From: an uncultured Alphaproteobacteria bacterium
Lineage (GTDB): Bacteria; Pseudomonadota; Alphaproteobacteria; Rs-D84
Direction: 5' to 3'
NCBI GenBank assembly: GCA_944389135.1
Contig: CALXLG010000003.1
Location: 51,488 to 115,487, forward strand
Length of the DNA stretch: 64,000 nt
Every line of letters starts with the position of its first letter. The first letter of the stretch is position 1. The notes beneath the pieces were generated by a model. The model saw only the letters and a list, made by a program, of their open reading frames with translations. It was not told the DNA's origin and did no database searches. The translations under genes and the position numbers were made by a program. Shown here in pieces: positions 10,487 through 29,602 of the stretch.

Positions 10487-10512
10487 CTAAATTTATCGTA
10501 GGGGGGTATTAG

Positions 10513-11855: not shown

Positions 11856-11858
11856 TAA

Positions 11859-12920: not shown

Positions 12921-13052
12921 CTTCTTTACCTTTGTTTTCTGAAAATAACCCTAAGTGGTGGATGCGTACGTCATATAACGAAAGCGTATGGAATTGGGAA
13001 AAAGTATTCTGATTGTTTGAACATCCACCACCAAAAAACATAAGGTGAAAAA

Positions 13053-14144: not shown

Positions 14145-14148
14145 AAAC

Positions 14149-15594
14149 ATGAAAAGAAAATATGACTATATAATATCTTTAGGTGAAAAATGTTTTATTG
14201 CGCAAACACTACATTTTATAGGAGCTAGAAAATTCTCGTCACCTTTTGATTGGGTTGGAATACATGAATTTACCAAAAACTCCTGCGTTGTTGGCAGAAT
14301 AAATTTAATATTAAATAATTTTAAGAACTTTTTTGATAAAAAAGAAGATTTTATACCACTTTATAATGGAGAATCGTATTTTTTTGTAAATAAAAACACA
14401 GGATTCGCCTTTAGACATGAATTTGTTGACCTTGATGATTTTGATAAAAATTTTGACCTTATAAAAGAAAAGTATGACAGAAGATGTAAAAGATTAATTG
14501 AGATACTTCAATCTAATAAAAAAATTTTATTTGTTTATTCCAGCAGTCTTTTCCCCATAAACGATAAAAAACAAGTAATAGAAGCAATTAATTTATTAAA
14601 CAAAAAATTTAATACAAATAAAATTGATTTATTGATAGTTGAAAGTAACAAAAATTTAAATAGACAAAACAACATTAAATATAAAAAGATAAACTCTAAT
14701 ATAATTTGGGTATCTGGTGTAGATTTATATAAACCAGTTTCAAACAAATCACCAGAATATTATATTAAAACCTTATCTAAAATTATAAAAACAAAGGCAG
14801 AAATTAAACCGGACAATGTTCAAACAATAATATCTTTAACAAGTTTCCCCGCCCGAATAAATAATATTCATATAGTTATAAAATCTTTGTTAAAGCAATC
14901 TGTAAAACCAGATAAAATTGTTCTTTACTTATCAGAACAAGAATTTCCTAAAAAAGAAATTCCTACTAATTTACAAAATCTTATCGGACCTATATTTGAA
15001 GTTAAATTTGTAAAAGAAAACTATAAATCATATAATAAACTAATTTATGCAATTAAAGACTTTCCAAATTCAAATATAGTAACTGTGGACGATGATATTT
15101 TATATCCTAAAAATTTATTATCAACTTTATTAAAAGAGCATAAAAAAAATCCAAAAACTATTTGCGCCCACAGAATAAGGAAAATAAATATACAAAATGA
15201 AGTTATAATGCCTTATAGAACATGGAAACTATTCGAAAAAAGAAGTCTTGTTTCAAAACCACTTAAGCCCGACTTTAAAAATTTCTTCTGTGGCGTTGGT
15301 GGTGTTTTATATCCACCCAGGTCTTTACATCCAGATGTTTTAAACTGCGATAAATTTTTAAAATTATGTGCACACCAAGATGATGTTTGGTTCTGGGCTA
15401 TGGCAGTAAAAAACAACTATAAAATATCTGTAACCCGTTTCGGATATAATCTTTTTAAACGAACGATACAATCTTTACAAGAGGTTGGTTTATGGAATAC
15501 AATAAATAGTAATAATACAGAAAGCCCCAATAATAAAGCAATAGAAGCAGTATTAAAAGAATACCCTGAAATAAGAAAGAAAATAGTGGCATAA
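14149..15594 (+). CDS. Two-domain protein: N-terminal DUF1796-like (papain-fold-like) domain plus a C-terminal glycosyltransferase-like domain
   Basis: The N-terminus ISLGEKCFIAQTLHFIGARKFSSPFDWV resembles DUF1796. The C-terminal half contains VTVDDDILYP (a DxD-type motif). The coding sequence is very AT-rich. Confidence 0.5.
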   Translation: MKRKYDYIISLGEKCFIAQTLHFIGARKFSSPFDWVGIHEFTKNSCVVGRINLILNNFKNFFDKKEDFIPLYNGESYFFVNKNTGFAFRHEFVDLDDFDKNFDLIKEKYDRRCKRLIEILQSNKKILFVYSSSLFPINDKKQVIEAINLLNKKFNTNKIDLLIVESNKNLNRQNNIKYKKINSNIIWVSGVDLYKPVSNKSPEYYIKTLSKIIKTKAEIKPDNVQTIISLTSFPARINNIHIVIKSLLKQSVKPDKIVLYLSEQEFPKKEIPTNLQNLIGPIFEVKFVKENYKSYNKLIYAIKDFPNSNIVTVDDDILYPKNLLSTLLKEHKKNPKTICAHRIRKINIQNEVIMPYRTWKLFEKRSLVSKPLKPDFKNFFCGVGGVLYPPRSLHPDVLNCDKFLKLCAHQDDVWFWAMAVKNNYKISVTRFGYNLFKRTIQSLQEVGLWNTINSNNTESPNNKAIEAVLKEYPEIRKKIVA

Positions 15595-15607: not shown

Positions 15608-16114
15608 TTATGCGGAATACCCATAAACAGACCAATTAACAAATATTTGATTAGTGTTTCCTCCTATATTTCTTACCCCCAATTCTACACTAGAAATACT
15701 TCTTGGACCAGAATTTCCCATTAGTCTTGTATACGAACTGTTACTAAATGGTGTTACTTGAACAGAATAATTTGTATTCAACATATTTAAGCTAAATACG
15801 GCGGTTAAATTCTTTGCGACGCCATCTGCTAAGTTTCCAAAACTTATTGTCCCCCCCTGCTCTACCCAGCCGCTTTTGTACTTGCGGTACCAACTGCTGC
15901 CGTCAGCCGCACGCCAAGTCTCTATAACATAATCTGCTGTATTTATGTCTGATGGTATATCGCTCTTCTTCGCTAATATTGTACCCCCTACTGTCTCGCC
16001 ATCATGAACACGTAACGTTTTGTTCGTCGTGTCCATCGTTATTTCTCCAATCACTCCTGTAAATTCTTCGTGCTCAACAGCACTGCCACGACGTATTTGT
16101 ATCTGTCTGGACAT
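15608..16114 (-). CDS. Phage tail-fibre-like protein (receptor-binding tip)
   Basis: The N-terminus IQIRRGSAVEHEEFTGVIGEITMDTTNKTLRVHDGETVGG matches the common fibre/Mtd-type N-terminal motif. The C-terminal SWYRKYKSGWVEQGG... resembles Gp53-like fibre tips. Confidence 0.7.
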   Translation of the reverse strand: MSRQIQIRRGSAVEHEEFTGVIGEITMDTTNKTLRVHDGETVGGTILAKKSDIPSDINTADYVIETWRAADGSSWYRKYKSGWVEQGGTISFGNLADGVAKNLTAVFSLNMLNTNYSVQVTPFSNSSYTRLMGNSGPRSISSVELGVRNIGGNTNQIFVNWSVYGYSA

Positions 16115-16173
16115 TTTTACTCCTTATATATATACGATACGTTTTCTGATTGTTTGAATTGAATTTCCTTGTT

Positions 16174-16527
16174 ATGATTAACACTATGAATTCTTATAAC
16201 ATCGGTGTTTTTTCAGAACTAATTGCATGTGCTTATTTAATTCTACACGGGTTTCGTATAGTGAAAAGACGATATATTACGGGACGTCTTACTAATCGCG
16301 CAGAAATTGATATCATCGCAAAGAAAAAAGACCTTTTAATATTCGTCGAAGTTAAAAGACGTTCCAATACAACAGAAGCTTTTAATGCTATAACCAGTGC
16401 ACAGATAAAAAGACTTCGCACCGCAGCAGAAACTTATATTTTACAAAAAAATTGGCGTGGCAACGCCAGATTTGATGCGATAATCATAACGCCTAAAAAA
16501 CTTCAATGGATTAAGGGCGCTATATAA
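16174..16527 (+). CDS. yraN: YraN-family (UPF0102) endonuclease-like protein
   Basis: EIDIIAKKKDLLIFVEVKRR and ...ARFDAIII... form the PD-(D/E)xK-like pattern typical of YraN. Confidence 0.75.
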   Translation: MINTMNSYNIGVFSELIACAYLILHGFRIVKRRYITGRLTNRAEIDIIAKKKDLLIFVEVKRRSNTTEAFNAITSAQIKRLRTAAETYILQKNWRGNARFDAIIITPKKLQWIKGAI

Positions 16528-16588
16528 GCTTGCATATAATTTCGTTTTTTTATAATATATAAATACACCGATTAAAAAGGAGATATGT

Positions 16589-16738
16589 ATGAAAAAAATT
16601 ATGTTGGCTTTGTTTGCTGTTTTAACATTGGCTGCTTGCACAGGTTCATATAAGCAAGGTAATTGTGAATATGATTTCTTGTTACATAAAGATATTTCTA
16701 TTTCTAAAATTATCGGCAACGCAACAGGTGGTTGCTAA
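16589..16738 (+). CDS. Small lipoprotein (49 aa)
   Basis: This ORF is not in the track. It has the RBS aaaggag and a lipobox (LTLAAC), and a bidirectional terminator follows at 16744-16776. Confidence 0.5.
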   Translation: MKKIMLALFAVLTLAACTGSYKQGNCEYDFLLHKDISISKIIGNATGGC

Positions 16739-16772
16739 AGAACAAAAAAATCCCGCAAAATGCGGGATTTTT

Positions 16773-17033
16773 TTATTTTATTACCGCTGTCTTAATTAAT
16801 GATACATCGTCTTTGATACCGTCAATTTTTATCTGTAATTGCCCAATACCCGTTTCTAAAATTGTTGTCCTGTTTTCCAGCGTTGTAATTCTATGATCTG
16901 CACGTTCTAATTCCGCCAGTGATGAATCTTGACGTGCAACCCAATATATCATGCCAGCGACAAAGGCGATTAAGAACCAACTATCTCTTAAGAAGTCAAT
17001 AATTCCCATCGCTCCGTTTTGAGTTTGCATCAC
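16773..17033 (-). CDS. Membrane-anchored coiled-coil protein (phage cluster)
   Basis: 86 aa with one TM helix (WFLIAFVAGMIYWV) followed by a heptad-rich tail. It overlaps the upstream ORF by 4 nt. Confidence 0.5.
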   Translation of the reverse strand: MMQTQNGAMGIIDFLRDSWFLIAFVAGMIYWVARQDSSLAELERADHRITTLENRTTILETGIGQLQIKIDGIKDDVSLIKTAVIK

Positions 17034-17221
17034 TTTCCCCGCTGTATCAGAGTTTCAATCTGATGTACAAGAGCTCTTTGTGCTTCTAGACCACGCAATT
17101 CTGAATCACTGGCGTTGGGTCCCAGAACACGCTCTATTGTTATACGCCGCAAATGCGCCAATACTGCTGCACCAGCAGCAGTTGAAAATGTACGCGCATA
17201 ATTTTGTTCAACTTCTTTCAT
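17030..17221 (-). CDS. Small phage-associated protein
   Basis: 63 aa, located immediately downstream of the portal gene. The function was not recognised with certainty. Confidence 0.45.
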   Translation of the reverse strand: MKEVEQNYARTFSTAAGAAVLAHLRRITIERVLGPNASDSELRGLEAQRALVHQIETLIQRGK

Positions 17222-17236
17222 ATCTTTCCCCTTTGC

Positions 17237-18460
17237 TTACAAAACTGTTTCTTCTATGGCCATTTGCGCTATTGGTGCGATATACTTTAATTCCGCATCA
17301 CTATGCAAAGATATTTTTTCTATCACCCCACGACGAGATAAAATCTGTAACCCACGTTCACACAAAGGTCTGATAAATTCATGCAACAGTCTGCCGTATG
17401 TTGCACCAAGTATTCTTACCATATCTGCATTACGTGCCATGATTTCAGTTGCGGTCATTTCTTTTTCAGACAACAAACCAAGTCTATCCGCCAGCAACGC
17501 ATGACGAATACGTTCACGCAAGTCTTTCAATATAATTTGTGATACATCAAAGTCTGCGCCAGAAGATAACGGGGTTAAGCCCGAACTACCTACCGCCTTT
17601 GGTATTATTGCCCCAGGTGTTAAATTAATGTTTGATAAGTTTATAACACCGTCATCATCTGCCTGCCATATACCAGAAACAGCGATTGTTGCGTTTTTTA
17701 ATACTAGTTCTACAACTTTATTTGCGGTCTTGATATCTGGCAAAGCACGCAATACTGGGCCACGTCCGTATAGTTCACCACTGGCAACCGACCAACGAAA
17801 AACTAAGTAAGGGTTCGTTTCAAAAGTACCAGTAGAAATAATATTGTTTTCAATATTTCCACCGACATCCAACCACGCAGTAAAATCTTTACCAACCAAG
17901 CTTTGTACTAATTTCAAAGGCATTTCTGGGTCTTTCTTTATTGCATCACGAATATCTGCAGGTGGTGTCCAAGAAGGATATTTCTCAATAACTTCACGCG
18001 CGGGCATTGAAGTAGTATGAAATATCGCATTCGGTAAAATTGCAATATCTTTCATCGGAATTGCGGTAAAAGAAAATGCGGAATCTGCCCCGATTGGATT
18101 TTCTGACATAAACAGACACGCCGTCCCCAGAATTACTAAATCTAAATAACATTGGTGTATGGTTGTATAGAAATTAGAATCGTTAAGGTTTGCACGTAAT
18201 GCCGCAGTTGCAGAAACAGCATCAGGCGAATCCTCACTTTCAGGTATCAAAGATATCCATAAAGATTCTGGTGGCGTCAACAAAGAATACATTGATGCGG
18301 CTAAATTATCTACGGCATCTGCAGCGGTCGCATCAAACAAAGTTGCGGCATCATCGTCTGCCGTTGGCATGGTATAACGCAATGCACTGTCCCACCTATT
18401 TAACCAAGGTGCACGTAAATCCAGCGCACGACGGTACATTTGTTGTAAATTATTTTGCAT
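17237..18460 (-). CDS. Phage portal (head-to-tail connector)-like protein
   Basis: 407 aa, directly downstream of the terminase nuclease half. Its size, its position and the N-terminal MYRRALDLRAPWLNRWDSALRYTMP resemble podovirus connector proteins. Confidence 0.6.
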   Translation of the reverse strand: MQNNLQQMYRRALDLRAPWLNRWDSALRYTMPTADDDAATLFDATAADAVDNLAASMYSLLTPPESLWISLIPESEDSPDAVSATAALRANLNDSNFYTTIHQCYLDLVILGTACLFMSENPIGADSAFSFTAIPMKDIAILPNAIFHTTSMPAREVIEKYPSWTPPADIRDAIKKDPEMPLKLVQSLVGKDFTAWLDVGGNIENNIISTGTFETNPYLVFRWSVASGELYGRGPVLRALPDIKTANKVVELVLKNATIAVSGIWQADDDGVINLSNINLTPGAIIPKAVGSSGLTPLSSGADFDVSQIILKDLRERIRHALLADRLGLLSEKEMTATEIMARNADMVRILGATYGRLLHEFIRPLCERGLQILSRRGVIEKISLHSDAELKYIAPIAQMAIEETVL

Positions 18461-18481
18461 ATAGTTTGCTCCTTTATTAAG

Positions 18482-19330
18482 TTATAACTTAAAGTCTGTA
18501 TTCGCTGTAAACGGCCTTATTCCTTGTCCTAATGGCCGCACAGGAATTGGGGTTGTTGCGATGGCACCTGCAACTGCATCTAAACCATCGTCATGACCTG
18601 TTGCGCCAACAGGTGACCAACCCAACATTTCTGATAACAGTGGCGTTGATTGAACACGCCGATGCGCATATAATCGCCCCGTTGTCAAAATAGGTTCTAT
18701 TGTTTCTAAAATTCGGGTTTCTTTTTTTGTGTGATTTAATATTTTTTGAATCTGTACTTGAATACCCCGCTGCTGCGTGATTGTACGCATAATTTCTGGC
18801 AACGCATTACCCATACCATTTGTTTCTATACAAATACGATGTAATAAATGTTTTGATAAGAAATCTAAAACCATCTCGCATTGTCTTGCCAGGGGGTGTG
18901 CTTCTTCGTCTGATACCAACAAGTACTTAACATCATGTATGAAAAAACGTTTGTTTTTATCGTCACGATAAATTAATACGCAAACACTGCCGTCAGCTTT
19001 CTTGCGCCCAGAAGATGGGTCCCAATAGGCTGTAACCCCTGTTATTAAAGCGTCTCCTATTTTAGATGTACGAAAATCAAAATCATTGTCATATAAATGT
19101 AAAGAATCGGGGTCTAAGCGGGCTCTGTCTGGAGCAACGAAATTTAACATCATTTGTGCAGAAAAGTATCTATCGCCAACAGTTGCCCGTAATTCTTCTA
19201 TTTTTTCAATTGGAAAAAGTTCCGGCCAAGCTGGTGCACCGTCTGAATCAATAATTGGTATACGTAATTCTTCATAACCGATTAAAAAAGGCGTTGAAAA
19301 AGCAAAATTTTTATATACTATATCTGACAT
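18482..19330 (-). CDS. Terminase large subunit, C-terminal nuclease half only
   Basis: The product starts MSDIVYKNF. It contains AYWDPSSG, ETNGMGNALPE and GHDDGLDAVAGA, the RNase-H-like terminase nuclease acidic motifs. It has no ATPase motifs. Confidence 0.8.
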   Translation of the reverse strand: MSDIVYKNFAFSTPFLIGYEELRIPIIDSDGAPAWPELFPIEKIEELRATVGDRYFSAQMMLNFVAPDRARLDPDSLHLYDNDFDFRTSKIGDALITGVTAYWDPSSGRKKADGSVCVLIYRDDKNKRFFIHDVKYLLVSDEEAHPLARQCEMVLDFLSKHLLHRICIETNGMGNALPEIMRTITQQRGIQVQIQKILNHTKKETRILETIEPILTTGRLYAHRRVQSTPLLSEMLGWSPVGATGHDDGLDAVAGAIATTPIPVRPLGQGIRPFTANTDFKL

Positions 19331-20882
19331 GGACTTTACTCCCAAAACTTTGCCAACGAACCTAGAAGCAGAACAAGCTGTATTGGCTGCAGTTCTAATG
19401 AACAATCGTGCGTTGGAAAAAGTTTCTGAATTTCTGCGTCCTGAACACTTCTCTCACCCAGCACACCAAGAAATCTATAAGCTTGCTGAAAAGCAATTTT
19501 CTGCCGGAATACCATTTGATATAATTACCGCTAAAAATTACCTTGACCAGCAAGGTGTTTTAGAATCCGTTGGTGGCGTAGATTATTTAACTCAGTTATC
19601 CAGCGCAGGTGCAACAGTTGTTAACGTTGAACAGTATGGACGCATTGTTTATGATAACGCTTTACGTCGTGATTTAATAAATTTAGGTCAATCAATTACT
19701 GATGCTGCATTTATTGAAGATTTAGACAATCCTGTTTCTGCACAAATAGAAACAGCGGAACAAAAATTGTTTGAAATGGCGTCAGCAGGAGTTTCTGAAA
19801 AAGAGGTTTCTTCTATTGCCACAGCTCTGCAAAGCGCACTACAAGAAGCTGAAATTGCCTATAAAGCCGACGGAAAGTTATCTGGTCTTACGACTGGTTT
19901 AACTGCACTTGATAAATCTATTAGTGGTTTGCATCATTCTGACTTAATCATCATTGCAGGTCGTCCAGCAATGGGAAAAACAACACTGGCAATGAATATC
20001 GCTTTTAACGCAGCAAATGCTATTTTATACGGGCGCGCAAACGAAAAGTATAAAGGTGCAGTAGCGTTTTTCAGTCTTGAAATGTCCGCATCTCAGTTAG
20101 CTGCCCGTGTATTGTCTTCACAATCTAAGGTTCCTGCCTCTGCCATGCGTGAAGGAACTTTGACGGATGAAGATTTTCTAAAAATGTCGCAATACTCCGC
20201 AGCTATTGGCAGAGTGCCATTGTATATTGACGATACCCCAGGTATGTCTGTACCAATGATACGAACACGCGCCAGAAGATTGGCTAGGAAATGCGGTGGT
20301 ATCGCTCTTATAGTGATTGACTATTTACAGCTGATGACATCACCTGGTGGCAAGCGAAATGATAACCGCGTTCAAGAAATATCCGAAATTACACGTGGTT
20401 TAAAAATGCTGGCCAAAGAATTAGATGTACCTGTAATAGCCTTGTCCCAGTTATCTCGTAGTGTAGAATCACGCGATGACAAACGACCACAACTGGCCGA
20501 CCTTCGTGAATCTGGTTCTATTGAACAAGACGCAGATATTGTTATGTTTACATACCGCGAAGAATACTATCTTGAGAATCGCGACCCGTCACAAAGAATT
20601 TCTGGTAATGCAAACGAAAAAATCATTGAAAGCTATCAAAAACGTTTGGAACGTGCACGTGGCAAGGCCGATGTTATTATCGGTAAAAACCGACACGGCA
20701 GACCAGAAACTGTTCACTTGGCATTCTTTGGCGATTATAGCTTGTTTGATAACTTGGACGAAATGGAAGGACGCACTGCAGATGAATTCTCAGGTAATAC
20801 AATGCCAACCACCTCTTTACCAACAGATGAAATTCCAGAAGCAATTGACCCTGACGCAATTCCAGACGATATGCCTTTGTAA
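19329..20882 (+). CDS. dnaB: Replicative DNA helicase DnaB
   Basis: Contains NLEAEQAVLAAVLMNN, the Walker A motif GRPAMGKTTLA, IDYLQLM and an acidic C-tail. Its ATG overlaps the opposite-strand TerL-C ATG in the palindrome CATG. Confidence 0.9.
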   Translation: MDFTPKTLPTNLEAEQAVLAAVLMNNRALEKVSEFLRPEHFSHPAHQEIYKLAEKQFSAGIPFDIITAKNYLDQQGVLESVGGVDYLTQLSSAGATVVNVEQYGRIVYDNALRRDLINLGQSITDAAFIEDLDNPVSAQIETAEQKLFEMASAGVSEKEVSSIATALQSALQEAEIAYKADGKLSGLTTGLTALDKSISGLHHSDLIIIAGRPAMGKTTLAMNIAFNAANAILYGRANEKYKGAVAFFSLEMSASQLAARVLSSQSKVPASAMREGTLTDEDFLKMSQYSAAIGRVPLYIDDTPGMSVPMIRTRARRLARKCGGIALIVIDYLQLMTSPGGKRNDNRVQEISEITRGLKMLAKELDVPVIALSQLSRSVESRDDKRPQLADLRESGSIEQDADIVMFTYREEYYLENRDPSQRISGNANEKIIESYQKRLERARGKADVIIGKNRHGRPETVHLAFFGDYSLFDNLDEMEGRTADEFSGNTMPTTSLPTDEIPEAIDPDAIPDDMPL

Positions 20883-20949
20883 TATTTTGTGCTTGCTAAA
20901 CTCCTAAAAATTGACTAATATTTTGTCAAGTAATTCAAGGAGATTTGCG

Positions 20950-21954
20950 ATGGCCCAAGAAGAAATAATTTTTCCTAATAACATCAGAAACATTCGTCTT
21001 GCCAATGGTATGAAAATGACTGAATTGGCGCGTCAGGCAAATTTATCTTTGTCTGCTGTTTCAAAAATTGAAAAAGGCGTACGTCGCTTAAATCAAAAGC
21101 AACTATTAAACATCTGTAATATTTTGGGTTGCAAATTATCCGATATCTTTATAAAAGAATCAGATGCTGTTGCAACACAATGGCAAGATGAAATCAAACG
21201 CCGTATGAGCGACAATGAAAACAATGGCTTAAAAATATTTGGCAGTGGGTTACGCAAAATACGTCAGCAAGCAGGTAAAACTATCGCCCAGGCGGCAAAA
21301 GAAGCCGGTATGACATTGTCCGTTTATCATAAAATTGAGGTCGGACAACGTGAAATTTACCAAGATGAAATTGAACCTTTGGCAAAATCATTTGCTTATA
21401 CAACATCTGAATTATTTGATAAAGTTGCAAATCTTTATAAATCTGGCGAACTTAATAAGCAAATTAATAAGGTTAAAGAGCGCGTAAAATCTGTACTAGT
21501 TCCGGACAACCCTTTATCTGGTATTGATCACAGCAGTTTATACGGTGCAAAGCTTTATGATAGCGCCAGAAAAAAATTAGTACCTGTATTTGGCATGCCA
21601 GAAGGTAAAGCCATAGCATTTAAGAAATCTGATGAAACAATGATTGTTGCACCAATGATGCTAGAAGGCAAAAAAGGTATTTATGCTGTAATACCGAACT
21701 CAAAACGTACTAACGGTTTTATTCCTGAAAAAGCGTATGTTTTTGCTGATTCGTGTGCGACTGTAAATACTGGTGATTTAGCAATCTGTATTGATGCAGA
21801 TTTTGATACTTTGGGCACAGAAGATAAAGCAACAGCTCAAATTGTTAGCGTTCGCCAAGATTCTAAGGGTAAAACATACGGTCAAATTTCTTCTCCGGAA
21901 GAAAAAATTATCGGCAAAACATTACACAAAGTTGTAATGATTGTTATGGAATAA
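20950..21954 (+). CDS. Transcriptional regulator with two XRE-type HTH domains and a CI/LexA-like C-terminal domain (no obvious catalytic Ser-Lys)
   Basis: Two segments of the type IRNIRLANGMKMTELARQANLSLSAVSKIEKG and LRKIRQQAGKTIAQAAKEAGMTLSVYHKIEVG are present. The RBS is aaggag. Confidence 0.7.
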   Translation: MAQEEIIFPNNIRNIRLANGMKMTELARQANLSLSAVSKIEKGVRRLNQKQLLNICNILGCKLSDIFIKESDAVATQWQDEIKRRMSDNENNGLKIFGSGLRKIRQQAGKTIAQAAKEAGMTLSVYHKIEVGQREIYQDEIEPLAKSFAYTTSELFDKVANLYKSGELNKQINKVKERVKSVLVPDNPLSGIDHSSLYGAKLYDSARKKLVPVFGMPEGKAIAFKKSDETMIVAPMMLEGKKGIYAVIPNSKRTNGFIPEKAYVFADSCATVNTGDLAICIDADFDTLGTEDKATAQIVSVRQDSKGKTYGQISSPEEKIIGKTLHKVVMIVME

Positions 21955-21981
21955 TAATTCATATTGCCTAGGGGGGACAAC

Positions 21982-22647
21982 ATGAAAGCGAAAGCCAGTT
22001 TAATTGCACAAAAACTTCTTAACTTATATCGTCAAGAGCATGTAATTTTTGGTGGTTGGGCCGCTGTTAATGAAGTATTCGTAAATGAAGCAACCCCTGA
22101 GGTAATAACCGAATTGCGCGAATTGCCAACAGGAAAATTATTAGCAAAACATATAGAAAATCTTCGCAGTGGCAAAACACCTATGAATTCTATTGAACGC
22201 GACCTACTTCCTTATGGTGGTATGATGGCAGAAACAATTGCAACAATTCCGTTAACGACAGAAGAATGGGCGGAATTAGAACAAGGCATACATAATTTCA
22301 CCCCTGATGAAAACGGTCTAAACGAAATACAACAGTTAAATGTTATCAAAAAGTTTGGCGATCAGTGGTTAGTTGCAATACGTGCAGCAATATCGGCAAA
22401 ACCAGAATTATTGGAAAAATGGTCAGTCATTGCAAAAACATACCGCGCATACTATTTATGGAAAGTGGCAAGCGATATGATTAACCAACCACTTACGGAA
22501 CGCGCACGTGCTCAATTACAAGCAGATATGCCAGAATATGAAACATACCTGCCTATGTTTGGCGAAGCGGGCGTAGAATTGTTAGAAAAATTACGTTCTT
22601 TCATAACCACAATGAAATCGGACAAAGAAGAAAATATTTCTGACTAA
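21982..22647 (+). CDS. Hypothetical protein
   Basis: 221 aa with the RBS gggggg and no recognised motif. It is the last gene of the insert that splits the terminase. Confidence 0.5.
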   Translation: MKAKASLIAQKLLNLYRQEHVIFGGWAAVNEVFVNEATPEVITELRELPTGKLLAKHIENLRSGKTPMNSIERDLLPYGGMMAETIATIPLTTEEWAELEQGIHNFTPDENGLNEIQQLNVIKKFGDQWLVAIRAAISAKPELLEKWSVIAKTYRAYYLWKVASDMINQPLTERARAQLQADMPEYETYLPMFGEAGVELLEKLRSFITTMKSDKEENISD

Positions 22648-23261
22648 CTTTCTGATTTAGTTCTATAAATAGTATCCATCGTATGTGGTGTGCCAATATA
22701 TATCATTGTGCCGGTGGGTGAAAGAATAAAATCAAGCTCTCGTAATTTCTCTCGTAATGTTTCTCGCTTTTGTGCGGTGTTGCAAGTATTTGGGACTTCG
22801 ACGTCATCGCATATAATCAAGTCTGCTCGCATACCTGTAATATTTCCATGAACTCCTTGGCATATTACAGATGGTTCGCGAATTCCAACAGGTCGGTTAA
22901 CAGTTATGCGTCCTTGGGCCCATTCTTTTTTCGCGCTTGGAATTAGCTCTTTACACAGCGGATGATTTTCTAGAATATGCCGAATATGTGCAACCATTCT
23001 AGAAGCCAGCCCGCTTTCAGCAGACAAAATTAAAATTCTTGTTTCTGGATGCAAATATAAAACACATGCAGCGAATATTCCAACCACTGTAGACTTACCT
23101 GAATGTCGGAAAGACATTAACAAACCGCGCTTATTTTTGCCTGTCCATATTGAAACAAGAAAATCCATAATTTTTTTATGATGCGTGGGAGTTTTAAATC
23201 CAAGAATCTCGTTCCAATCATCTAAGAAATTATAGAACTCCGTAATCATCACGTGTTTCAT
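22644..23261 (-). CDS. Terminase large subunit, N-terminal ATPase half only
   Basis: It has Walker A (SFRHSGKST) and Walker B (DLIICDDVE) motifs and the coupling motif IGTP. It stops right after ...MDTIYRTKSES. Confidence 0.8.
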   Translation of the reverse strand: MKHVMITEFYNFLDDWNEILGFKTPTHHKKIMDFLVSIWTGKNKRGLLMSFRHSGKSTVVGIFAACVLYLHPETRILILSAESGLASRMVAHIRHILENHPLCKELIPSAKKEWAQGRITVNRPVGIREPSVICQGVHGNITGMRADLIICDDVEVPNTCNTAQKRETLREKLRELDFILSPTGTMIYIGTPHTMDTIYRTKSES

Positions 23262-23778
23262 TTGGCGCCTGCTCTGTTATGCTGCCATAATCATTTATTA
23301 AATTTGGCAAAGCATTATCTAATACCGATAATAAGTTATTATAAAGCCCTAAAACACTGCCACCAGATAATTTATCTTCTATTAGCTTGACCGTATAATC
23401 TATAAAAGATAATACTTTATCATGTACGTTTGCCCACTCTGAAACATTTATATCTATGTTTTGCAGGTCTTTAAAAGCCTCTAATAAAAAATTAAAATCG
23501 GCGTTTAGTGCTTCGGGGTCTATCTTTGCGGTTGGTTGATAATCAACAACACGCGACAAAGCAATTTGTCTAAAAATATCCACTTTTGTGTTTTCTGCTG
23601 GTGGATTTATAAAAATAACTGTTCCACCAGAAAAATCTTCGTTCGCAACAATGGAACATTCGCCGTTCAAACAAAGCTTATCATCTAGCGCAACACGAAT
23701 GTCTGCTTCTTGAAAAAAAGGAAACGCAAATAAGAACTCTGACGTTACCCCATCAGCAATATAAGAGTTTCTGTACAT
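23230..23778 (-). CDS. T7-type tail-fibre N-terminal (tail-attachment) domain protein
   Basis: The N-terminal YIADGVTSEFLFAFPFFQEADIRVALDD matches the pattern of the podovirus fibre N-terminal domain. At 182 aa it has no long shaft. Confidence 0.6.
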   Translation of the reverse strand: MYRNSYIADGVTSEFLFAFPFFQEADIRVALDDKLCLNGECSIVANEDFSGGTVIFINPPAENTKVDIFRQIALSRVVDYQPTAKIDPEALNADFNFLLEAFKDLQNIDINVSEWANVHDKVLSFIDYTVKLIEDKLSGGSVLGLYNNLLSVLDNALPNLINDYGSITEQAPNETRDDYGVL

Positions 23779-23791
23779 TCCTGCCCCCTTA

Positions 23792-24139
23792 TTAACCGAC
23801 TAAATCATCAAATTTATCCAACAAAGACTGTAATAAGTTTGGTTTTTGTACTTTTATCTTCTTTAACTTTTCAGTTTTAGTACGCTTTTTTTCTTCGTAT
23901 GGTTCGGCCGCTTCTTCTTTTAATCGCTTTAGGACTGCCCCTTCGGTCATGCCTTTACCTGACATACCAGACGCACCATATTTAGCACGTTGCGTGGCTA
24001 ATGTTTTTTTTACTAAATTTGTTTTTTCTTTTTCATCAGCTGCCATATCAGACAGTATCTTCTGTCTTTCTGTTTCGGCTTCTTTTTTTGAATCTTTATA
24101 ATTTAAAATATCTGTTACATCTGAAACTATCTGCCCCAT
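23792..24139 (-). CDS. Lys/Glu-rich small virion-associated-like protein
   Basis: 115 aa, highly charged, located between the tubular-B-like and fibre-N genes. Confidence 0.4.
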   Translation of the reverse strand: MGQIVSDVTDILNYKDSKKEAETERQKILSDMAADEKEKTNLVKKTLATQRAKYGASGMSGKGMTEGAVLKRLKEEAAEPYEEKKRTKTEKLKKIKVQKPNLLQSLLDKFDDLVG

Positions 24140-24155
24140 TTTTTTCTCCCTATGT

Positions 24156-25871
24156 TTAAACTAGGTAATATCCATACATTGTTATCGATAAAACCGTTGT
24201 TGGTAATTGTTCACTGCTTGAAATTGTCCAAGGTGCCGTTATGCAATTCCTTTGGCACCCAAGTAAATTTATTGAAACGTCACCACTATAACCATTGGTA
24301 TCATCTGCGAATATTTCGTTTGGAAAATCTGCTCTGGCCCCGTTTATAAATAAAGACTTTGTATTAAGAACACGTGCAGAAATTTTACGAACTTTTATTT
24401 TATTTGCATTATGACCGGACGCTCTTAAAGGTAAAGCTGAGGCGGTATAAGAAAAGCCATACTTATCCGCATCAATTAACACATCGTCTGAAAATTTTTC
24501 TAGCGAATATTTGCCTTCTCGTAAAACCACGACATATGTATCACCGCTACTTACCGCAACAGATTGAAAATTACCTTGAGTTTTATAAGTTGCCCACGCA
24601 GAAATACCAAGTGCGGAATTTTGATTCAAAACCGCCATATCACCAGATTCCATTACAACAAAAAGCTGTCTTGTTTTATCGTTGTATGCTAAATCTATAG
24701 GATTCTGCATTAAATGCTTTGACAATCCACATAAATCTGTCGCATTATAATTTTCACCAAGCTGGTCTAAACTTAATTCACGAATATCTTTTTTACTGCC
24801 AGATATAAAAACTGTCGCACCTTCAATTTTTTGTGGTGGCAAGTAACGTGTTGCTACACTGCCTACAGATGTGTGCTGCTTTATGTCCACAACAGACGGA
24901 GTTAAGGGCTTACTTGAAATTGCCCATTCACCAGCAGATGTAAGTATTTGTAAATTATCGCTACTTACAACAGTACATATCTGTTGACGTTGTTGTGATA
25001 GTAAAGTTATAAAAATTGCTTCATCATCTAAGCCGGTTCCAACATTAAAATTATTATGCCGACCGACCTGCGATAGCCAGACACCACTTGGCCAAGAACG
25101 TGAACCACCAAAAACTAATCTGTCTTGATGAAATGTGATACTGCAAGGCCAGCCTCTGCGTTTACTAAATGCCGCTTCGCGCCAATCAGAAACGGGTTCT
25201 GCCGGTACAGTATACGTACCATTCACATAAGCTTTTACTACTTTCGCACTTATATATTCAGAAATAAGCCATTGCTTACCTAGCAATAAAAAACGACCGT
25301 CTTTATCGTCAGGTGTCCAATAATCAACGTTTGTCGTAAACGTTGCAAAATTATTTCCAGAATCACTTGCAGTAACGGTTATTTTAATGTCTTCTGTATC
25401 ATCAAAACGCATAAACGGTATATTTACAGTCATATCCGAATCGTTACGCGCAAAATCAAACTTTGATAACTCAAAATCATTCCCAACTTTTTTCAGTGTA
25501 TAAGGCTGAAAATCTGGATGCACAAAAATCATCGTACCAAAGCGTTGCGCATATTGAAGTTTTGCTAAATCGTTAAAGCTCCATGGACTTATCAAGTCTT
25601 TTATTCTTTGCCCGTCAAAGTAAATCAATATATGCTGATTAATTAATACCAATAAATAATTTTCTGTTTCACTTACTGAAAAATCTATTAATCTTGCATT
25701 ATCAGACAGGCTTGCAACACTTTTTAGTCCACGTCTGCGAGATAAACCACCGCCTGCAAGAACGTCCATATTTTCTAACTTTGAAAGTCCATTGGTATTA
25801 TCACGTGCAAAAAATTCAGGTGCAACTTCGCCATCTGCAAAAGAATTCTGTGTTTTTATAAAATCTCCCAT
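24156..25871 (-). CDS. Tail tubular protein B (nozzle)-like protein
   Basis: 571 aa. The call rests on its position after the adaptor-like gene and its large beta-rich sequence, i.e. mainly on synteny with T7-like order. Confidence 0.5.
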   Translation of the reverse strand: MGDFIKTQNSFADGEVAPEFFARDNTNGLSKLENMDVLAGGGLSRRRGLKSVASLSDNARLIDFSVSETENYLLVLINQHILIYFDGQRIKDLISPWSFNDLAKLQYAQRFGTMIFVHPDFQPYTLKKVGNDFELSKFDFARNDSDMTVNIPFMRFDDTEDIKITVTASDSGNNFATFTTNVDYWTPDDKDGRFLLLGKQWLISEYISAKVVKAYVNGTYTVPAEPVSDWREAAFSKRRGWPCSITFHQDRLVFGGSRSWPSGVWLSQVGRHNNFNVGTGLDDEAIFITLLSQQRQQICTVVSSDNLQILTSAGEWAISSKPLTPSVVDIKQHTSVGSVATRYLPPQKIEGATVFISGSKKDIRELSLDQLGENYNATDLCGLSKHLMQNPIDLAYNDKTRQLFVVMESGDMAVLNQNSALGISAWATYKTQGNFQSVAVSSGDTYVVVLREGKYSLEKFSDDVLIDADKYGFSYTASALPLRASGHNANKIKVRKISARVLNTKSLFINGARADFPNEIFADDTNGYSGDVSINLLGCQRNCITAPWTISSSEQLPTTVLSITMYGYYLV

Positions 25872-25887
25872 ACCGACTACCCCCAGA

Positions 25888-26406
25888 TTAAAAACGCGCG
25901 TTGATTAAAGAAAAACTTTCTATGTCTTGATTGATTGACGTTGTACTGTCTATAAATTTCGCAGATTGCATTTCTGTTTCATATAAAGCGGCAAGCATTC
26001 TAAATACACTTTGCTCGCCAATAAGTGGTATACAAAATTCCATTGCTAACTTAGTCGCAGCCAGTGAAACAAAATAACTAGGGAAGTTTTCAACAGGAAC
26101 CTTTGTTATCGCCAAAATAGAAATCTTTTCTTCTGCAGAAATAATTTTATTTCCGATAATTTCCCCATTGCATTTCAAAACACGCAAACAATCAATTGGT
26201 ATTAAAAAGTCTCCGTCCGATGTTTTTGTAAGCTCATATTTTTTACATGCAAAGCGCCACGGATGCGAAGACAGCAAGGTATCTATTACTGGGTCAAACA
26301 AAGTCCTACTAAGTTGCGCAGCCGGTGTATCATCTACAAGAGACTGAATAGATTTCTCGCCCAGCTTTAATAACGCCATAGAACATAAATCTATTTTCGT
26401 AATCAT
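25888..26406 (-). CDS. Tail tubular protein A / adaptor-like protein
   Basis: The N-terminus IDLCSMALLKLGEKSIQSLVDDTPAAQLSRTLFDPVIDTLLSSHPWRFA follows the N-terminal pattern I associate with podovirus gp11-like adaptors. Confidence 0.55.
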   Translation of the reverse strand: MITKIDLCSMALLKLGEKSIQSLVDDTPAAQLSRTLFDPVIDTLLSSHPWRFACKKYELTKTSDGDFLIPIDCLRVLKCNGEIIGNKIISAEEKISILAITKVPVENFPSYFVSLAATKLAMEFCIPLIGEQSVFRMLAALYETEMQSAKFIDSTTSINQDIESFSLINARF

Positions 26407-26462
26407 ATTATGCCCCTTATTGCTAAAAATAAAGGCGACATAAAAATGTCGCCTTGGTTTTA

Positions 26463-26690
26463 TTATGCTAAATCAGCAACACTAACATTGCCAGAAACAG
26501 CAACTTTTTTAATAGAAGTATTATCAGACGCATTTATGATTACGATATCACCTGTATTCATTAACGTCTTTACACCATCAAAATAACCAGCCGTTGTAAT
26601 CGCTGTTAACGTTTCGTTTGCAGAATAATGCCACAAAGTAAAACCATTGGCATATGCAATAACAGATAAATTTTTATTCTGAAAAGCCAT
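26463..26690 (-). CDS. Small phage structural-cluster protein
   Basis: 75 aa, directly downstream of the capsid gene, which makes a decoration or cement role possible. Confidence 0.4.
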   Translation of the reverse strand: MAFQNKNLSVIAYANGFTLWHYSANETLTAITTAGYFDGVKTLMNTGDIVIINASDNTSIKKVAVSGNVSVADLA

Positions 26691-26723
26691 TATATAATCC
26701 TTTTATTTCGGTTTTAATTTGTT

Positions 26724-27545
26724 TTATTGATTGTCCAAGCATTTAACACGTACAATGCCATCATTATCAATCAATACTGCACCTTGTGACATGCTGTTGC
26801 TGATAAAGTGCGCAGCACGTTCACCATGCCAAGAAATATCTGTTTTAACTTCTTGACCGCATGCATGACCAACGCTGGTTGCGTGATAAATAAAGCAATC
26901 ACGGTTATCTTCTGTTAAAGGCAAGCCGTTATGCAAAACCCAAGTAATACCTAACCATTTCTTAGAAGCACCACCTGATACCAACGGCAAATCATTACCT
27001 ACGTAATCTGCAGAAACAAATTCGTCCATTGACAACAGTTCATTCCATTGATGAACACCAACAACAGCAAATCTACGACCGTCATCAGGAACATCTTTTT
27101 CATTTAATGCCTCTACTGCAGATAAAATCAAATCTTTTGTAAGACCAGTGCTATAATCACCAACAGAGTTTGTTGCTTTGCTCATTGCAGAGATAATTAA
27201 TTCATCAGTTTTACGCCCAAGCGCATATGCACCAGCAGATGCAACTACACGACGTTCATCAACGTTTGTCTTTAATTCATCCAATGCATCAACCCAATCA
27301 CCTGCATAATAATCTTGCAATATACATTCAACAGGTTCATGGTTTAAGTTCATAACAGGAACTATCCCATGACGAGATTTTGTACTGGCCGTACCACGAC
27401 CAACTTTTTGGAAAGTTGTTGAAGCACCAACAACACCGGACTTACTACGAACAGTTGCACGTAGTTTTGTCCCCATTTGCTGATACGCCAAATGTACATC
27501 GGCTTCGAATTGTTTCACGAAGACCTGATCTATGGAAACAGACAT
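26724..27545 (-). CDS. Major capsid protein-like
   Basis: 273 aa. The N-terminus VFVKQFEADVHLAYQQMGTKLRATVR is a pattern I recall from podovirus capsid families. The gene follows the scaffold gene. Confidence 0.6.
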   Translation of the reverse strand: MSVSIDQVFVKQFEADVHLAYQQMGTKLRATVRSKSGVVGASTTFQKVGRGTASTKSRHGIVPVMNLNHEPVECILQDYYAGDWVDALDELKTNVDERRVVASAGAYALGRKTDELIISAMSKATNSVGDYSTGLTKDLILSAVEALNEKDVPDDGRRFAVVGVHQWNELLSMDEFVSADYVGNDLPLVSGGASKKWLGITWVLHNGLPLTEDNRDCFIYHATSVGHACGQEVKTDISWHGERAAHFISNSMSQGAVLIDNDGIVRVKCLDNQ

Positions 27546-27788
27546 ATATTATTCCTTTTTATAATCAAGTGAATTTAATGCGTATAAATAACGCGGCTAA
27601 AATTTTGTATCATGGTTATGCGCTTTAACGCGCCAATATACAAAATACCAAGGTCCTAAAAAGGATTGTCTTGAGAAATTCTTAGTCATACTAAACAAAA
27701 ACATATGACTAAAAATTTCAAAAAATAAAACCGCATAAAAATGCGGCTGTATAGAAAAAGTAAATCCCCGCAATTGCGAGGATTTATA

Positions 27789-28082
27789 TTATTTTTTCTT
27801 TGCACATGCTTTCTTAGCAACTGGTTTTTTTACAGCTACTTTTTTTGCACATACTTTTTTTGCTGCTGGTTTCGCTGCTACTTTTTTTACAGCTACTTTC
27901 TTTGCAACTGGTTTTTTTGCAACAACTTTTTTTGCAGCTGGTTTTGCAGCTACTTTCTTTGCAGCTGGCTTTGCAGCTGGTTTCTTTGCAGCTGGTTTAG
28001 CTGCTGCTTTTTTTGCAACCGGTTTTGCAGCTGGTTTTGCAGCTGGTTTCTTTGCGGCTGGCTTCAAGAATGAAAATGCCAT
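27789..28082 (-). CDS. Lys/Ala-rich histone-H1-like (AKKPAAKPAAK repeat) basic protein
   Basis: The ATG at 28082 follows the RBS aggaga. About 85 aa consist of (A/V)AKKPAAKP-type repeats. The gene has its own flanking terminators at 27741-27788. Confidence 0.7.
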   Translation of the reverse strand: MAFSFLKPAAKKPAAKPAAKPVAKKAAAKPAAKKPAAKPAAKKVAAKPAAKKVVAKKPVAKKVAVKKVAAKPAAKKVCAKKVAVKKPVAKKACAKKK

Positions 28083-28185
28083 TCTTCTCTCCTTTTTATT
28101 TTTTGGATAGAACAAATTTGTTTTGTTCTTACTTTATATTTTATATGAAACAAAAATATTAGTAAAGAAGAAAGTGCATTTTTTT

Positions 28186-28842
28186 CTATGAATATAATTT
28201 TTTAAAACCATTTTCTATCTTTCTAACATACTCTGGATCTTGGTCGCGCCAATATTTTGGATCTTGCATCATGCGTCTTAAATCATTATCTGTTAAATTT
28301 TTTGATGCGAAATCATCTGTACGAACACTTGGTTCCATTGATTGCATCATTTTGTAGACACCTTGAATTCCCTGGGCTGTAGAACACAACTCTTCAAAAG
28401 CATTTGCAGGTAAATATTTTTCACCAAATGATTTTATTGCATGCAATGCTTCATTCATTTTTTCTTCACCACCAAAAAAATTTTTTAATTCCATAATTTC
28501 TTTATTTTCATTTTGCACATTAAATAAATCTGAAATTATTGGTGATAAATAATCTTCTGCAAGTTTATAAATTTTTTCAACCTGCGAAGATGTTAAACCA
28601 ATTTCAAAAAATTTATTACGCAAATCTTCATCATCAAACATCGGATTTGCAGGATATGCATCTGCGCTTTCTGGGACACCAATTGCGCGATAAAATTTTG
28701 TGCGTGTTTCTTTGTCTGCATCATCAGCAGGTACAGAAATCATCGTTCCAATCTTTTTTTCTAATTCAGAATAAGATTTTAATAATGCATTTGTATTTAA
28801 AGTTCCGTCTTCATTTAGAAATTTTTCTGGAATTTTTTCCAT
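28186..28842 (-). CDS. Phage scaffolding (capsid assembly) protein-like
   Basis: The product starts MEKIPEKFLNEDGTLNTNALLKSYSELEKKIG, a typical scaffold N-terminus, and is acidic and helical. The longer track ORF has an implausible hydrophobic extension. Confidence 0.55.
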   Translation of the reverse strand: MEKIPEKFLNEDGTLNTNALLKSYSELEKKIGTMISVPADDADKETRTKFYRAIGVPESADAYPANPMFDDEDLRNKFFEIGLTSSQVEKIYKLAEDYLSPIISDLFNVQNENKEIMELKNFFGGEEKMNEALHAIKSFGEKYLPANAFEELCSTAQGIQGVYKMMQSMEPSVRTDDFASKNLTDNDLRRMMQDPKYWRDQDPEYVRKIENGFKKLYS

Positions 28843-29032
28843 TTCGTCTTCCTTTTGTTTCGCTTGATTTACGCAGAAAATAAATTCCGCCCAAAGTAAA
28901 GATTGCTTGCAACATTGTAAATATATCTGTGTCACCAACCAGATATGCACCAATAGCAGATAATATACCAACACCTGATATTATATAAGTTCTATGACCT
29001 GCTAAAAAACCACCTTTGATAATTTTATTCAT
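28811..29032 (-). CDS. Holin-like small membrane protein
   Basis: 73 aa with two TM segments and a basic C-tail. It lies immediately downstream of the cell-wall hydrolase gene. Confidence 0.5.
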   Translation of the reverse strand: MNKIIKGGFLAGHRTYIISGVGILSAIGAYLVGDTDIFTMLQAIFTLGGIYFLRKSSETKGRRNGKNSRKISK

Positions 29033-29041
29033 CTCAAAATC

Positions 29042-29443
29042 CTATGCATAAAAAAGCAAACCGTCTATATCGGCAACATATCCAATTGATTGCGCCCATA
29101 TCGGCATTTCTTCTGCATGATGAAAACGTGTGGCACCATTACAAGCATCAATTAAACCACCTTTTATCATTCTGCTTACTACACGCAAGCACATTTGAAA
29201 ACCACGACTATTTATATCTATGTCTGCAATTTTTTCTTTATTTCTTAATGCTGGAAATATATCTGCATCGTTTGCAATGTCTTCAAAAGTTCTACCACTA
29301 CGACAAGATATATTTTTTATCATTGATGTAATAGCTTCTACTGCAGGCAAAGATATAGCACGTGTTTCTGAATAAACAACGCGCGCAATTTTATATGTTA
29401 TTCTTTTATTTTCATCTGTGTTTTTTATCAGTTCCAATTGCAT
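29042..29443 (-). CDS. SleB-type cell wall hydrolase (endolysin-like)
   Basis: The sequence IARVVYSETRA...NGATRFHH...W...IG..LFY follows the Hydrolase_2 (SleB) pattern. Confidence 0.65.
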   Translation of the reverse strand: MQLELIKNTDENKRITYKIARVVYSETRAISLPAVEAITSMIKNISCRSGRTFEDIANDADIFPALRNKEKIADIDINSRGFQMCLRVVSRMIKGGLIDACNGATRFHHAEEMPIWAQSIGYVADIDGLLFYA

Positions 29444-29602
29444 CTGACGCCGACCTTTATTTTTGAAAAATAAAAAGCCGCACAAAATGTGCGGCTTAAA
29501 AAAAATCCGTAAAACTTTACGGACACAATCTTTACTGTTTATGTTTTATATAATATCATATTTTACATATTAAGTCAAGTTTTTTATTTTGTTAGTGGCT
29601 TT

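Follow-up and report, generated by a model that had tools for sequence, protein, structure and literature searches.

A conserved T7-type particle locus with a two-piece large terminase in Candidatus Enterousia is a candidate gene transfer agent

What does a bacterium with a genome of about 0.9 Mb do with a set of phage head, tail and lysis genes that has no replication or integration genes beside it? The set considered here lies at positions 15608 to 29443 of a 64-kb stretch of DNA (the window) from the chromosome of the low-GC alphaproteobacterium "Candidatus Enterousia," order Rs-D84. A first-pass annotation had read the locus as either a domesticated particle locus resembling a gene transfer agent (GTA) or an old prophage relic. 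Our analysis supported the domesticated reading, and the synteny of the locus, its substitution ratios and the invariant motifs of its large terminase (TerL) spoke against a relic; gene transfer activity is what we infer from the gene set. We propose that the locus is probably a phage-derived, vertically inherited gene set under host control, whose products would form a short-tailed, T7-like, DNA-packaging particle released by lysis, making it a candidate GTA (viriform). More tentatively, it may represent a second GTA family of the Alphaproteobacteria, descended from T7-like podophages, fixed in Rs-D84/Enterousia and present in a related form in free-living Acetobacteraceae; in the Enterousia branch, the insertion of the essential helicase gene dnaB between the halves of a two-piece TerL would then tie the particle genes to the core genome.

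Gene identities were assigned by Pfam, PHROG and NCBIfam scans together with inspection of the sequence. On this basis the locus spans 13.9 kb and holds a T7-type virion and lysis gene set (Table 1), and every head, tail and lysis open reading frame (ORF) listed in the first-pass annotation was present with the identity it had been given. That annotation had also seen no integrase, excisionase, polymerase, small terminase or large internal virion proteins, and our scans agreed. No integrase, excisionase or polymerase turned up when the large ORFs of all 64 kb were scanned against Pfam. Nothing recognizable as a small terminase or a large internal virion (gp15/gp16-like) protein was present in the window, and RNA polymerase, DNA polymerase, primase-helicase and gp15/gp16-like core proteins were absent from the window and from the 80 related loci described below. 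No att-like direct repeats were found flanking the cluster, where only short repeats at chance level occur, and the integrase and att sites that might have lain just outside its borders were seen neither in the window nor in the related loci. Profile matches confirmed that yraN (PF02021) and dnaB (NF006606) lie inside the cluster, as had been claimed, and the dnaB product scored below the cutoff of the phage_DnaB model. The impression that the composition is close to that of core genes and unlike that of the AT-rich islets was borne out as well: the phage-like genes have a mean G+C fraction (GC) of 0.37 and a third-position value (GC3) of 0.26, against 0.39 and 0.30 for core genes and a GC of 0.25 for the neighboring glycosyltransferase islet. 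The base composition of the phage-like genes is ameliorated to that of the host. The window shows one hallmark of GTAs, namely, chromosomal structural genes of phage descent that bring no replication, integration or lysogeny-switch module with them.

A second hallmark is vertical inheritance under purifying selection. A collection with one genome per species gave 333 confirmed relatives of the capsid gene, of which the best 80 loci were read with 10-kb flanks. Gene order and orientation were the same in all full-length loci among these 80. Along one strand run birA, lysin, holin, scaffold, Lys-rich gene, capsid, 75-amino-acid (aa) gene, adaptor, nozzle, 115-aa gene, the gene for the fiber N-terminal domain (fiber-N, where present) and the N-terminal TerL gene (TerL-N); there follow, on the opposite strand, the genes for a 221-aa protein (u227 in the loci), a helix-turn-helix (HTH) regulator and DnaB, and then the C-terminal TerL gene (TerL-C), portal, Bbp19 and 86-aa genes. 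Shorter patterns in some loci were due to contig ends. The exact capsid protein of the window was found in 72 blocks of the assembly collection, with identical synteny on all six contigs shown. Contigs with capsid relatives were deposited as "Candidatus Enterousia," "uncultured Alphaproteobacteria" and "uncultured Rickettsiales" and came from human and animal guts; a closed 958-kb genome is among the carriers. Two contigs (L066 and L058) were deposited under Bacteroides fragilis and Muribaculaceae bins and are probably misbinned Enterousia DNA. According to published accounts, which are silent on phage genes, Enterousia belongs to the uncultured order Rs-D84 and has genomes of less than about 1 Mb.

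The first-pass annotation had allowed that orthologous loci might prove absent or pseudogenized in relatives; instead, they were present, syntenic and under purifying selection in the best 80 of the 333. Its remark that the ORFs are intact also held, as no stop codons were found in the capsid, portal, nozzle, adaptor, TerL-N or TerL-C genes across 69 to 80 species. Ratios of nonsynonymous to synonymous substitution rates (dN/dS; pairwise Nei-Gojobori), which are rough because dS is near saturation but whose direction is not in doubt, were 0.06 for capsid, 0.07 for portal, 0.11 for TerL-N, 0.12 for nozzle, 0.19 for TerL-C and 0.31 for lysin, with adaptor and fiber-N within 0.11 to 0.19. The core genes gave 0.07 (dnaB), 0.15 (birA), 0.15 (rlmD) and a value in the range of 0.12 to 0.15 (lpxI). 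Median identity was 89% for the capsid versus 69% for BirA and 65% for RlmD, and the capsid was also more conserved than LpxI; within the locus, conservation is highest in capsid, portal, scaffold and TerL. Protein distances of phage-like and core genes were correlated (Mantel r = 0.84), a value reached by 0 of 999 permutations, and metagenome read depth was flat across the locus and its flanks. The locus is vertically inherited and under purifying selection, and its phage-like genes are constrained as strongly as the neighboring housekeeping genes. Purifying selection by itself would fit a circulating phage too; the case for domestication comes from its combination with a fixed site, internal host genes, the lack of mobility genes, host-like composition and codivergence.

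The packaging enzyme of the locus is encoded in two pieces. Two ORFs share TerL between them, the cut falling about 12 residues past ATPase motif III, and in Enterousia the halves are separated by dnaB, the double-HTH regulator gene and the 221-aa gene, all on the opposite strand. The split is not an assembly artifact, since more than 80 independent assemblies show it. Across 79 species the TerL-N motifs FRHSGKST, ICDDVEVPN and IGTPH vary little or not at all, and the TerL-C motifs WDP, IETNG and HDDGLDA are invariant in 74. When concatenated, the halves gave a one-piece alignment to T7-like TerL proteins over 94 to 96% of their length: TerL-N aligns to residues 33 to 216 of T7 gp19, up to its own last residue, and TerL-C begins at the next collinear segment of a T7-like TerL. 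Since the protein is collinear across the break, with nothing lost or duplicated, there is no room for intein halves. An intein or intron as the cause of the break was ruled out by this lack of space and by the three opposite-strand genes in the Enterousia gap, and neither the window nor the 270-nt spacer of the L146 contig described next gave an Rfam match to a self-splicing intron. In the window the TerL-C start at 19330 on the minus strand stands head-to-head with the dnaB start at 19350 or 19398 on the plus strand, about 20 to 70 nt apart, and the stop codons of TerL-N and u227 overlap.

Two more distant loci carry the same cut in other surroundings. In L146 (38% GC; capsid 68% identical) TerL is cut at the same position, but its halves are separated only by a 270-nt noncoding spacer that holds a perfect TTGACA-17-TATAAT, and a host ABC-F gene follows instead of the portal gene (L146 8179-9925). 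In L144 (51% GC; 4731-10749) TerL-N is followed by an opposite-strand dnaB and an 834-aa gene and then by TerL-C, with no portal gene nearby. The cluster is more dispersed in these two contigs, where portal is not adjacent to TerL. TerL is unsplit in the phage-order relatives L147 and L148 and in the high-GC relatives discussed below. We infer from these sequences that the TerL gene was first divided into two neighboring genes, with host genes entering the gap later. The two polypeptides would work together as a motor. A literature search gave no precedent for a naturally split TerL. The two-gene TerL, cut inside the ATPase domain and conserved in at least 80 species, is a natural experiment on the packaging motor.

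The control signals and the fiber tip bear on how such a particle might be used. A sigma-70-type promoter (TTGACT-17-TATTAT at 29578-29550), with conserved hexamers, lies directly after birA, and two hairpin and T-run terminators (29524-29505 and 29497-29475) stand between it and the lysin start codon. The double-HTH protein is, from its domains, a candidate repressor or controller of the locus. We considered an S24 (LexA/CI) autopeptidase in its C-terminal part, but neither Pfam nor BLASTP supported it, and the serine that it would require is not conserved.

The first 84 aa of the tip protein are conserved, in contrast to a hypervariable C-terminal half, with conservation per 14-residue block of 0.62 to 0.89 for residues 1 to 84 versus 0.26 to 0.42 for residues 85 to 168. 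Its AlphaFold2 (AF2) model had a mean predicted local distance difference test score (pLDDT) of 91.5, and the best fold matches were R-pyocin fiber tips, BPP-1 Mtd and lectins. The window tip shares the Mtd N-terminal domain, with a C-terminal fold nearest to R1/R2 pyocin tips and lectins, but at 168 aa is much shorter than these proteins, and, in contrast to BPP-1, no diversity-generating retroelement (reverse transcriptase or template repeat) was seen in the window. The tip gene adjoins the glycosyltransferase islet (13053-15594; GC 0.25), which differs between species; in four metagenome runs, depth fell to about zero left of 16170, the islet being absent from other strains. The variation of the tip looks like allele exchange between strains. 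Copies of an 18-nt direct repeat (13004-13021 and 16141-16158; 94% identical) lie on either side of the islet and the tip gene, and the segment 13004-16158 resembles a swappable cassette of a surface glycan and its receptor-binding protein.

From these parts the following course can be outlined. The double-HTH repressor-type protein and the promoter-terminator leader, of the antitermination type, would silence the late genes in most cells, and transcription reading past the leader terminators would lead to rare lytic particle production. In those few cells, portal, scaffold and capsid would form procapsids, and the TerL halves would associate into a motor that loads chromosomal DNA, presumably without sequence preference because no small terminase is recognizable. 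Adaptor, nozzle, short fiber and the variable lectin-like tip would finish the particle, and holin and endolysin would release it. The tip would bind a surface glycan of kin cells, which fits the position of its gene beside the strain-variable islet. DNA would probably reach only the periplasm, because the gp15/gp16-like proteins are gone and a small gp14-like protein alone appears to be left; recipient uptake functions would then be needed, as with the Rhodobacter capsulatus agent (RcGTA). The benefit in a lineage with genomes of about 0.9 Mb would likely be recombination.

Several points weigh against a GTA. The particle, its expression, its DNA content and transfer are predicted from the genes, and motor function of the TerL halves is likewise a prediction from sequence. 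The dS values are about 1.2 to 1.3, near saturation, and the strong conservation speaks for selection for some function, not for gene transfer specifically. No small terminase or large ejection proteins were recognized. GTA particles are further expected to carry DNA too short for their own genes; the locus is 13.9 kb, against 34-kb genomes in phages with equally long capsid proteins, and if the head is T=7-like as in those relatives, the whole locus of about 14 kb could fit and the expectation may fail. The fiber-N gene is missing in 20 of the 80 loci, in which u115 abuts TerL-N, and a deletion in L066 has fused TerL-N to one half of the adaptor gene. This fusion (L066 11187-11977) could reflect decay or misassembly.

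There is some chance, although we think it unlikely, that the particle is domesticated and functional but serves a purpose other than gene exchange, such as killing or adhesion, the release of DNA or protein, or action on the animal host or neighboring microbes. Selection is evident and function is not, the large ejection proteins and a recognizable small terminase are missing, and the short fiber is dispensable in those 20 species; George et al. voiced the same doubt about RcGTA-type clusters of endosymbionts (PMC9254644). However, the strict conservation of the TerL ATPase and nuclease motifs and of the portal is hard to explain without DNA packaging, and a variable lectin-like tip beside a variable glycan islet fits recognition of related cells.

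The relatives of the locus bear on its origin and on whether it still moves. The nearest cultured phages are podophages of about 34 to 35 kb, Pelagibacter phage EXVC031P Hodr and Methylophilales phage MEP301. Their capsid is 46% and their portal 33 to 37% identical to those of Enterousia, their Bbp19, scaffold, 75-aa protein, nozzle, fiber N-domain and lysin are homologous, and the order is largely collinear. The genes of Hodr run from TerL through portal, Bbp19, scaffold, capsid, the 75-aa homologue, adaptor and nozzle to two large internal proteins and the fiber, after which come about 15 kb of early genes. Hodr differs in having these early/replication genes, internal proteins of 783 and 1247 aa and an unsplit TerL with no detectable similarity to the Enterousia TerL, whereas the Enterousia set is circularly permuted, has host genes inside and lacks counterparts of both large internal proteins. 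Some contigs of other composition (MT838907, L147, L148 and L149) also carry related gene sets, arranged as in the phages.

The IMG/VR database lists many "viral" contigs of 10 to 12 kb that are the Enterousia chromosomal locus. Dozens of such 10- to 12-kb pieces (among L093-L143) are entered as viral genomes, many cut exactly at the capsid start, and listing a chromosomal locus in this way leads to inflated virus counts and spurious host links.

IMG/VR also holds contigs of about 12 to 13 kb with 58 to 74% GC that carry portal, scaffold, capsid, adaptor, nozzle, fiber and an unsplit TerL. A protein search with one of these high-GC capsids led to Acetobacteraceae isolates (75 to 86% identity) in Roseomonas, Pseudoroseomonas/Teichococcus, Muricoccus, Siccirubricoccus, Humitalea, Caldovatus and others; the high-GC cluster comprises contigs L150, L158, L161-L164, L167 and L171 and isolates L173-L177. 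In five genomes the Acetobacteraceae cluster spans about 13 kb and runs from a divergent S24 (CI/LexA-type) repressor through two or three small genes to portal, scaffold, capsid, adaptor and nozzle, followed by a 146-aa gene, a 760-aa fiber, a 114-aa gene, TerL, a small gene and a Hydrolase_2 lysin, with no integrase or replication gene within 10 kb. The chromosomal site is shared: three genera have the left flank lysS-mprF in common, and three have DUF952 on the right. Capsid identity is 79 to 83%, versus 62 to 71% for LysS and 61 to 62% for MprF; one genome has an apparently broken TerL, and one has no lysin. Portal, scaffold, capsid, adaptor, nozzle, small internal protein, fiber N-domain, TerL and lysin are homologous to those of Enterousia at 28 to 59% identity. 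The two differ in that the Acetobacteraceae version has an unsplit TerL, portal first, the full-length 760-aa fiber and the S24 repressor, lacks dnaB, the Lys-rich gene and the Mtd_N tip gene, and resides in hosts with about 72% GC and genomes of 3.7 to 6 Mb.

The comparison with this cluster, of which we found no description in the literature, also informs two assignments. PF07486 is weak on the window lysin and clear on its Acetobacteraceae homologue. The Acetobacteraceae 146-aa protein matches phrog_418, "internal virion protein" (E = 4e-8), and through this transitive link the 115-aa protein of the window is probably a small gp14-like internal virion protein. In a rough capsid tree, low-GC loci with split TerL form one clade (70% bootstrap) and high-GC loci another (75%), with phage-order contigs beside the low-GC split-TerL clade. 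One domestication or several are possible.

The many locus copies filed as viral contigs, the phage-order sets on contigs of other composition (MT838907, L147, L148 and L149) and the CI/LexA-type S24 repressor of the Acetobacteraceae version could suggest a still-propagating mobile element, that is, a satellite or defective prophage using a helper's replication and integration. We regard this as improbable, since the site and gene order are constant across the 80 species loci, the core genes dnaB and yraN lie inside, neither an integrase nor att repeats were found, divergence tracks that of core genes, the composition is that of the host, and metagenome depth is flat. An old prophage remnant in neutral decay, to which the missing autonomy modules, the interrupted TerL, the internal deletion in L066 and the Acetobacteraceae genomes with broken TerL (one) or no lysin (one) might point, is highly improbable in view of near-saturated synonymous divergence without stop codons in 69 to 80 species, dN/dS of 0.06 to 0.31, invariant catalytic residues and a capsid more conserved than BirA, RlmD and LpxI. 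An intact or inducible prophage was rejected, there being no integrase or recombinase, no att repeats and no variable presence among relatives; so were an autonomous T7-like podovirus, whose virion module is present but whose polymerases, primase-helicase and large core proteins are missing, and a tailocin, as capsid, portal, scaffold and TerL are kept and are among the most conserved genes of the locus.

Table 1. Features of the particle locus and its control signals (positions in the 64-kb window)
Feature	Position	Strand	Evidence
Mtd_N fiber-tip/receptor-binding protein	15608..16114	-	PF18454, E 2e-13; 168 aa; syntenic in other species
yraN (UPF0102 nuclease-like), host-type gene inside cluster	16183..16527	+	PF02021, E 7e-20; position kept in other species
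Small DUF4223 lipoprotein, inside cluster	16589..16738	+	Lipobox LAAC; PF13978 on orthologues
Hairpin terminator, bidirectional, closing TerL-C-portal operon	16744..16774	.	14-bp stem between T and A runs
86-aa protein, N-terminal transmembrane (TM) helix and coiled coil	16773..17033	-	Sequence; kept in 72 loci; dN/dS 0.14
Bbp19-like small virion-module protein	17030..17221	-	PF25181 on orthologues; 48% identity to pelagiphage Hodr homologue
T7-type portal (head-tail connector)	17237..18460	-	PF12236, E 7e-81; median identity 85% across species; dN/dS 0.07
TerL C-terminal polypeptide, 282 aa (remaining ATPase domain and RNase-H-like nuclease)	18482..19330	-	PF22530, PF17289; start MSDIVYK at 19330
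dnaB, cellular-type replicative helicase	19350..20882	+	NF006606, 619 bits versus cutoff 540
Double Xre-type HTH regulator with conserved C-terminal domain, fold unassigned	20950..21954	+	PF01381 x2; PHROG repressor families; median identity 82%; dN/dS 0.08
221-aa all-alpha protein (u227 in loci), convergent with TerL-N	21982..22647	+	Lineage restricted
TerL N-terminal polypeptide, 205 aa (Walker A, Walker B and catalytic Glu, motif III)	22644..23261	-	Alignment to T7 gp19
Short fiber protein with T7 gp17-type N-terminal tail-attachment domain	23230..23778	-	phrog_1640, E 1e-10
115-aa charged helical protein (u115)	23792..24139	-	27-34% identity to Acetobacteraceae 146-aa protein 3' of nozzle
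Nozzle (T7 gp12-like tail protein)	24156..25871	-	phrog_376, E 5e-81; dN/dS 0.12
Adaptor (T7 gp11-like tail protein)	25888..26406	-	phrog_394, E 1e-33
Hairpin terminator downstream of capsid and 75-aa genes	26432..26455	.	10-bp stem, then T run
75-aa protein 3' of capsid gene	26463..26690	-	phrog_18004, E 2e-12; same-position homologue in Hodr and MT838907
Major capsid protein	26724..27545	-	PF19821, E 2e-72; identity 87-100% in 86 loci; dN/dS 0.06
Inverted repeat (hairpin) 5' of capsid gene	27682..27712	-	Conserved across loci
Lys/Ala/Pro-rich histone-H1-like protein, 97 aa	27789..28082	-	Sequence
T7-type scaffolding protein	28186..28842	-	PF05396, E 7e-10; called as 218 aa in loci
Holin-like protein (putative), two TM helices and basic tail	28811..29032	-	Sequence; kept in 73 loci
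Endolysin-like cell wall hydrolase (SleB/Hydrolase_2-like)	29042..29443	-	phrog_938, E 4e-8; PF07486 weak
Control region (promoter and two terminators) 5' of lysin	29475..29578	-	Hexamers conserved, 40 aligned species

Features that the first-pass annotation had not listed include the Lys/Ala-rich histone-H1-like gene, the double-HTH regulator, the 221-aa gene, the DUF4223 lipoprotein gene and the Bbp19-like gene. All 67 of 67 loci have an equivalent of the Lys-rich ORF separating scaffold from capsid, its length differing among species, and the Lys/Ala/Pro-rich product is built of 12- and 15-nt periodic repeats; the Hodr protein at this position is not Lys-rich. The Lys-rich protein may be a DNA-condensing or internal head protein. 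About 170 nt 5' of the capsid gene, 71 of 76 loci have a perfect inverted repeat with the core TCAGTC..GACTGA, which in the window (27682-27712, minus strand) reads TTAGTCATA-N13-TATGACTAA and which keeps its position in L007-L086. Many two-sided (compensatory) substitutions preserve its pairing, and the half-site matched elsewhere in the window at chance level only; the repeat may serve as an operator or form a hairpin that acts in RNA processing or stability. The 86-aa protein, given its predicted TM helix and coiled coil, is a candidate spanin or holin-type lysis accessory protein. For the 221-aa protein there was no Pfam, PHROG or PDB-profile match, and an exhaustive HMMER search among 1.8 billion proteins gave only 47 representative clusters; no informative domain was present in the nine clusters checked, longest members included, and a single-sequence AF2 model (pLDDT 57) was too poor for a fold search.

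Apart from the locus, the large ORFs with Pfam assignments in the window have core functions only, including RNase E/G, uppS, cdsA, rseP, birA, an rlmD-type 23S rRNA methyltransferase, lpxI, miaA, gap and topoisomerase subunit A, with BamA and PriA identified from orthologues. A VirB8-like gene and two conserved unassigned genes lie beside bamA (10513-12641), and a gene for an ATPase of the type II/type IV secretion system type lies near priA (35694-36689). These may be remnants of secretion or DNA uptake functions and could matter for DNA uptake by recipients. A second AT-rich stretch (1707-3800; GC 0.30 to 0.32) contains a pair of ORFs, each of about 330 aa, that match no Pfam family.

If the locus does encode a T7-like GTA, it would be a new GTA origin and the first short-tailed one known to us. 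The locus is fixed in widespread uncultured gut bacteria with genomes of about 0.9 Mb, where it is among the best-conserved gene sets, and it would bear on recombination in reduced-genome symbionts; the homologous cluster in cultivable Acetobacteraceae of the Roseomonas group makes direct tests of the GTA hypothesis feasible. Our literature search, in which journal coverage was partial, found no GTA described for Enterousia, Rs-D84 or Roseomonas and none of T7 type, in agreement with the earlier remark that known GTAs are not T7-like. Further independent GTA origins exist besides RcGTA and the unrelated Bartonella agent (BaGTA).

With BaGTA the locus shares a conserved phage-derived particle locus in a host-associated, low-GC alphaproteobacterium. 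BaGTA has a portal gene of 1863 nt, a TerL gene of 1344 nt and a separate run-off replication region (PMC3610622), so that, on the published gene descriptions, gene sizes and gene set differ. RcGTA-type clusters are kept under purifying selection in reduced alphaproteobacterial endosymbionts (PMC9254644). Like them, the Enterousia locus comprises phage-derived head, tail and lysis genes in the chromosome, with no replication or integration module, is inherited vertically under purifying selection, is partly interleaved with or dispersed among host genes, is kept in tiny alphaproteobacterial genomes and likely follows a similar logic of periplasmic DNA delivery. Unlike RcGTA, it has a PF12236 portal, a PF05396 scaffold, a PF19821 capsid, a gp11/gp12-like adaptor and nozzle, a short tail and a split TerL, and lacks a prohead protease, tail tube and tape measure; the window scans gave no protease or tail-tube match. 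A portal, scaffold, capsid and tail of T7 type place the locus outside the RcGTA family, and by functional analogy the closest known thing to it is a gene transfer agent.

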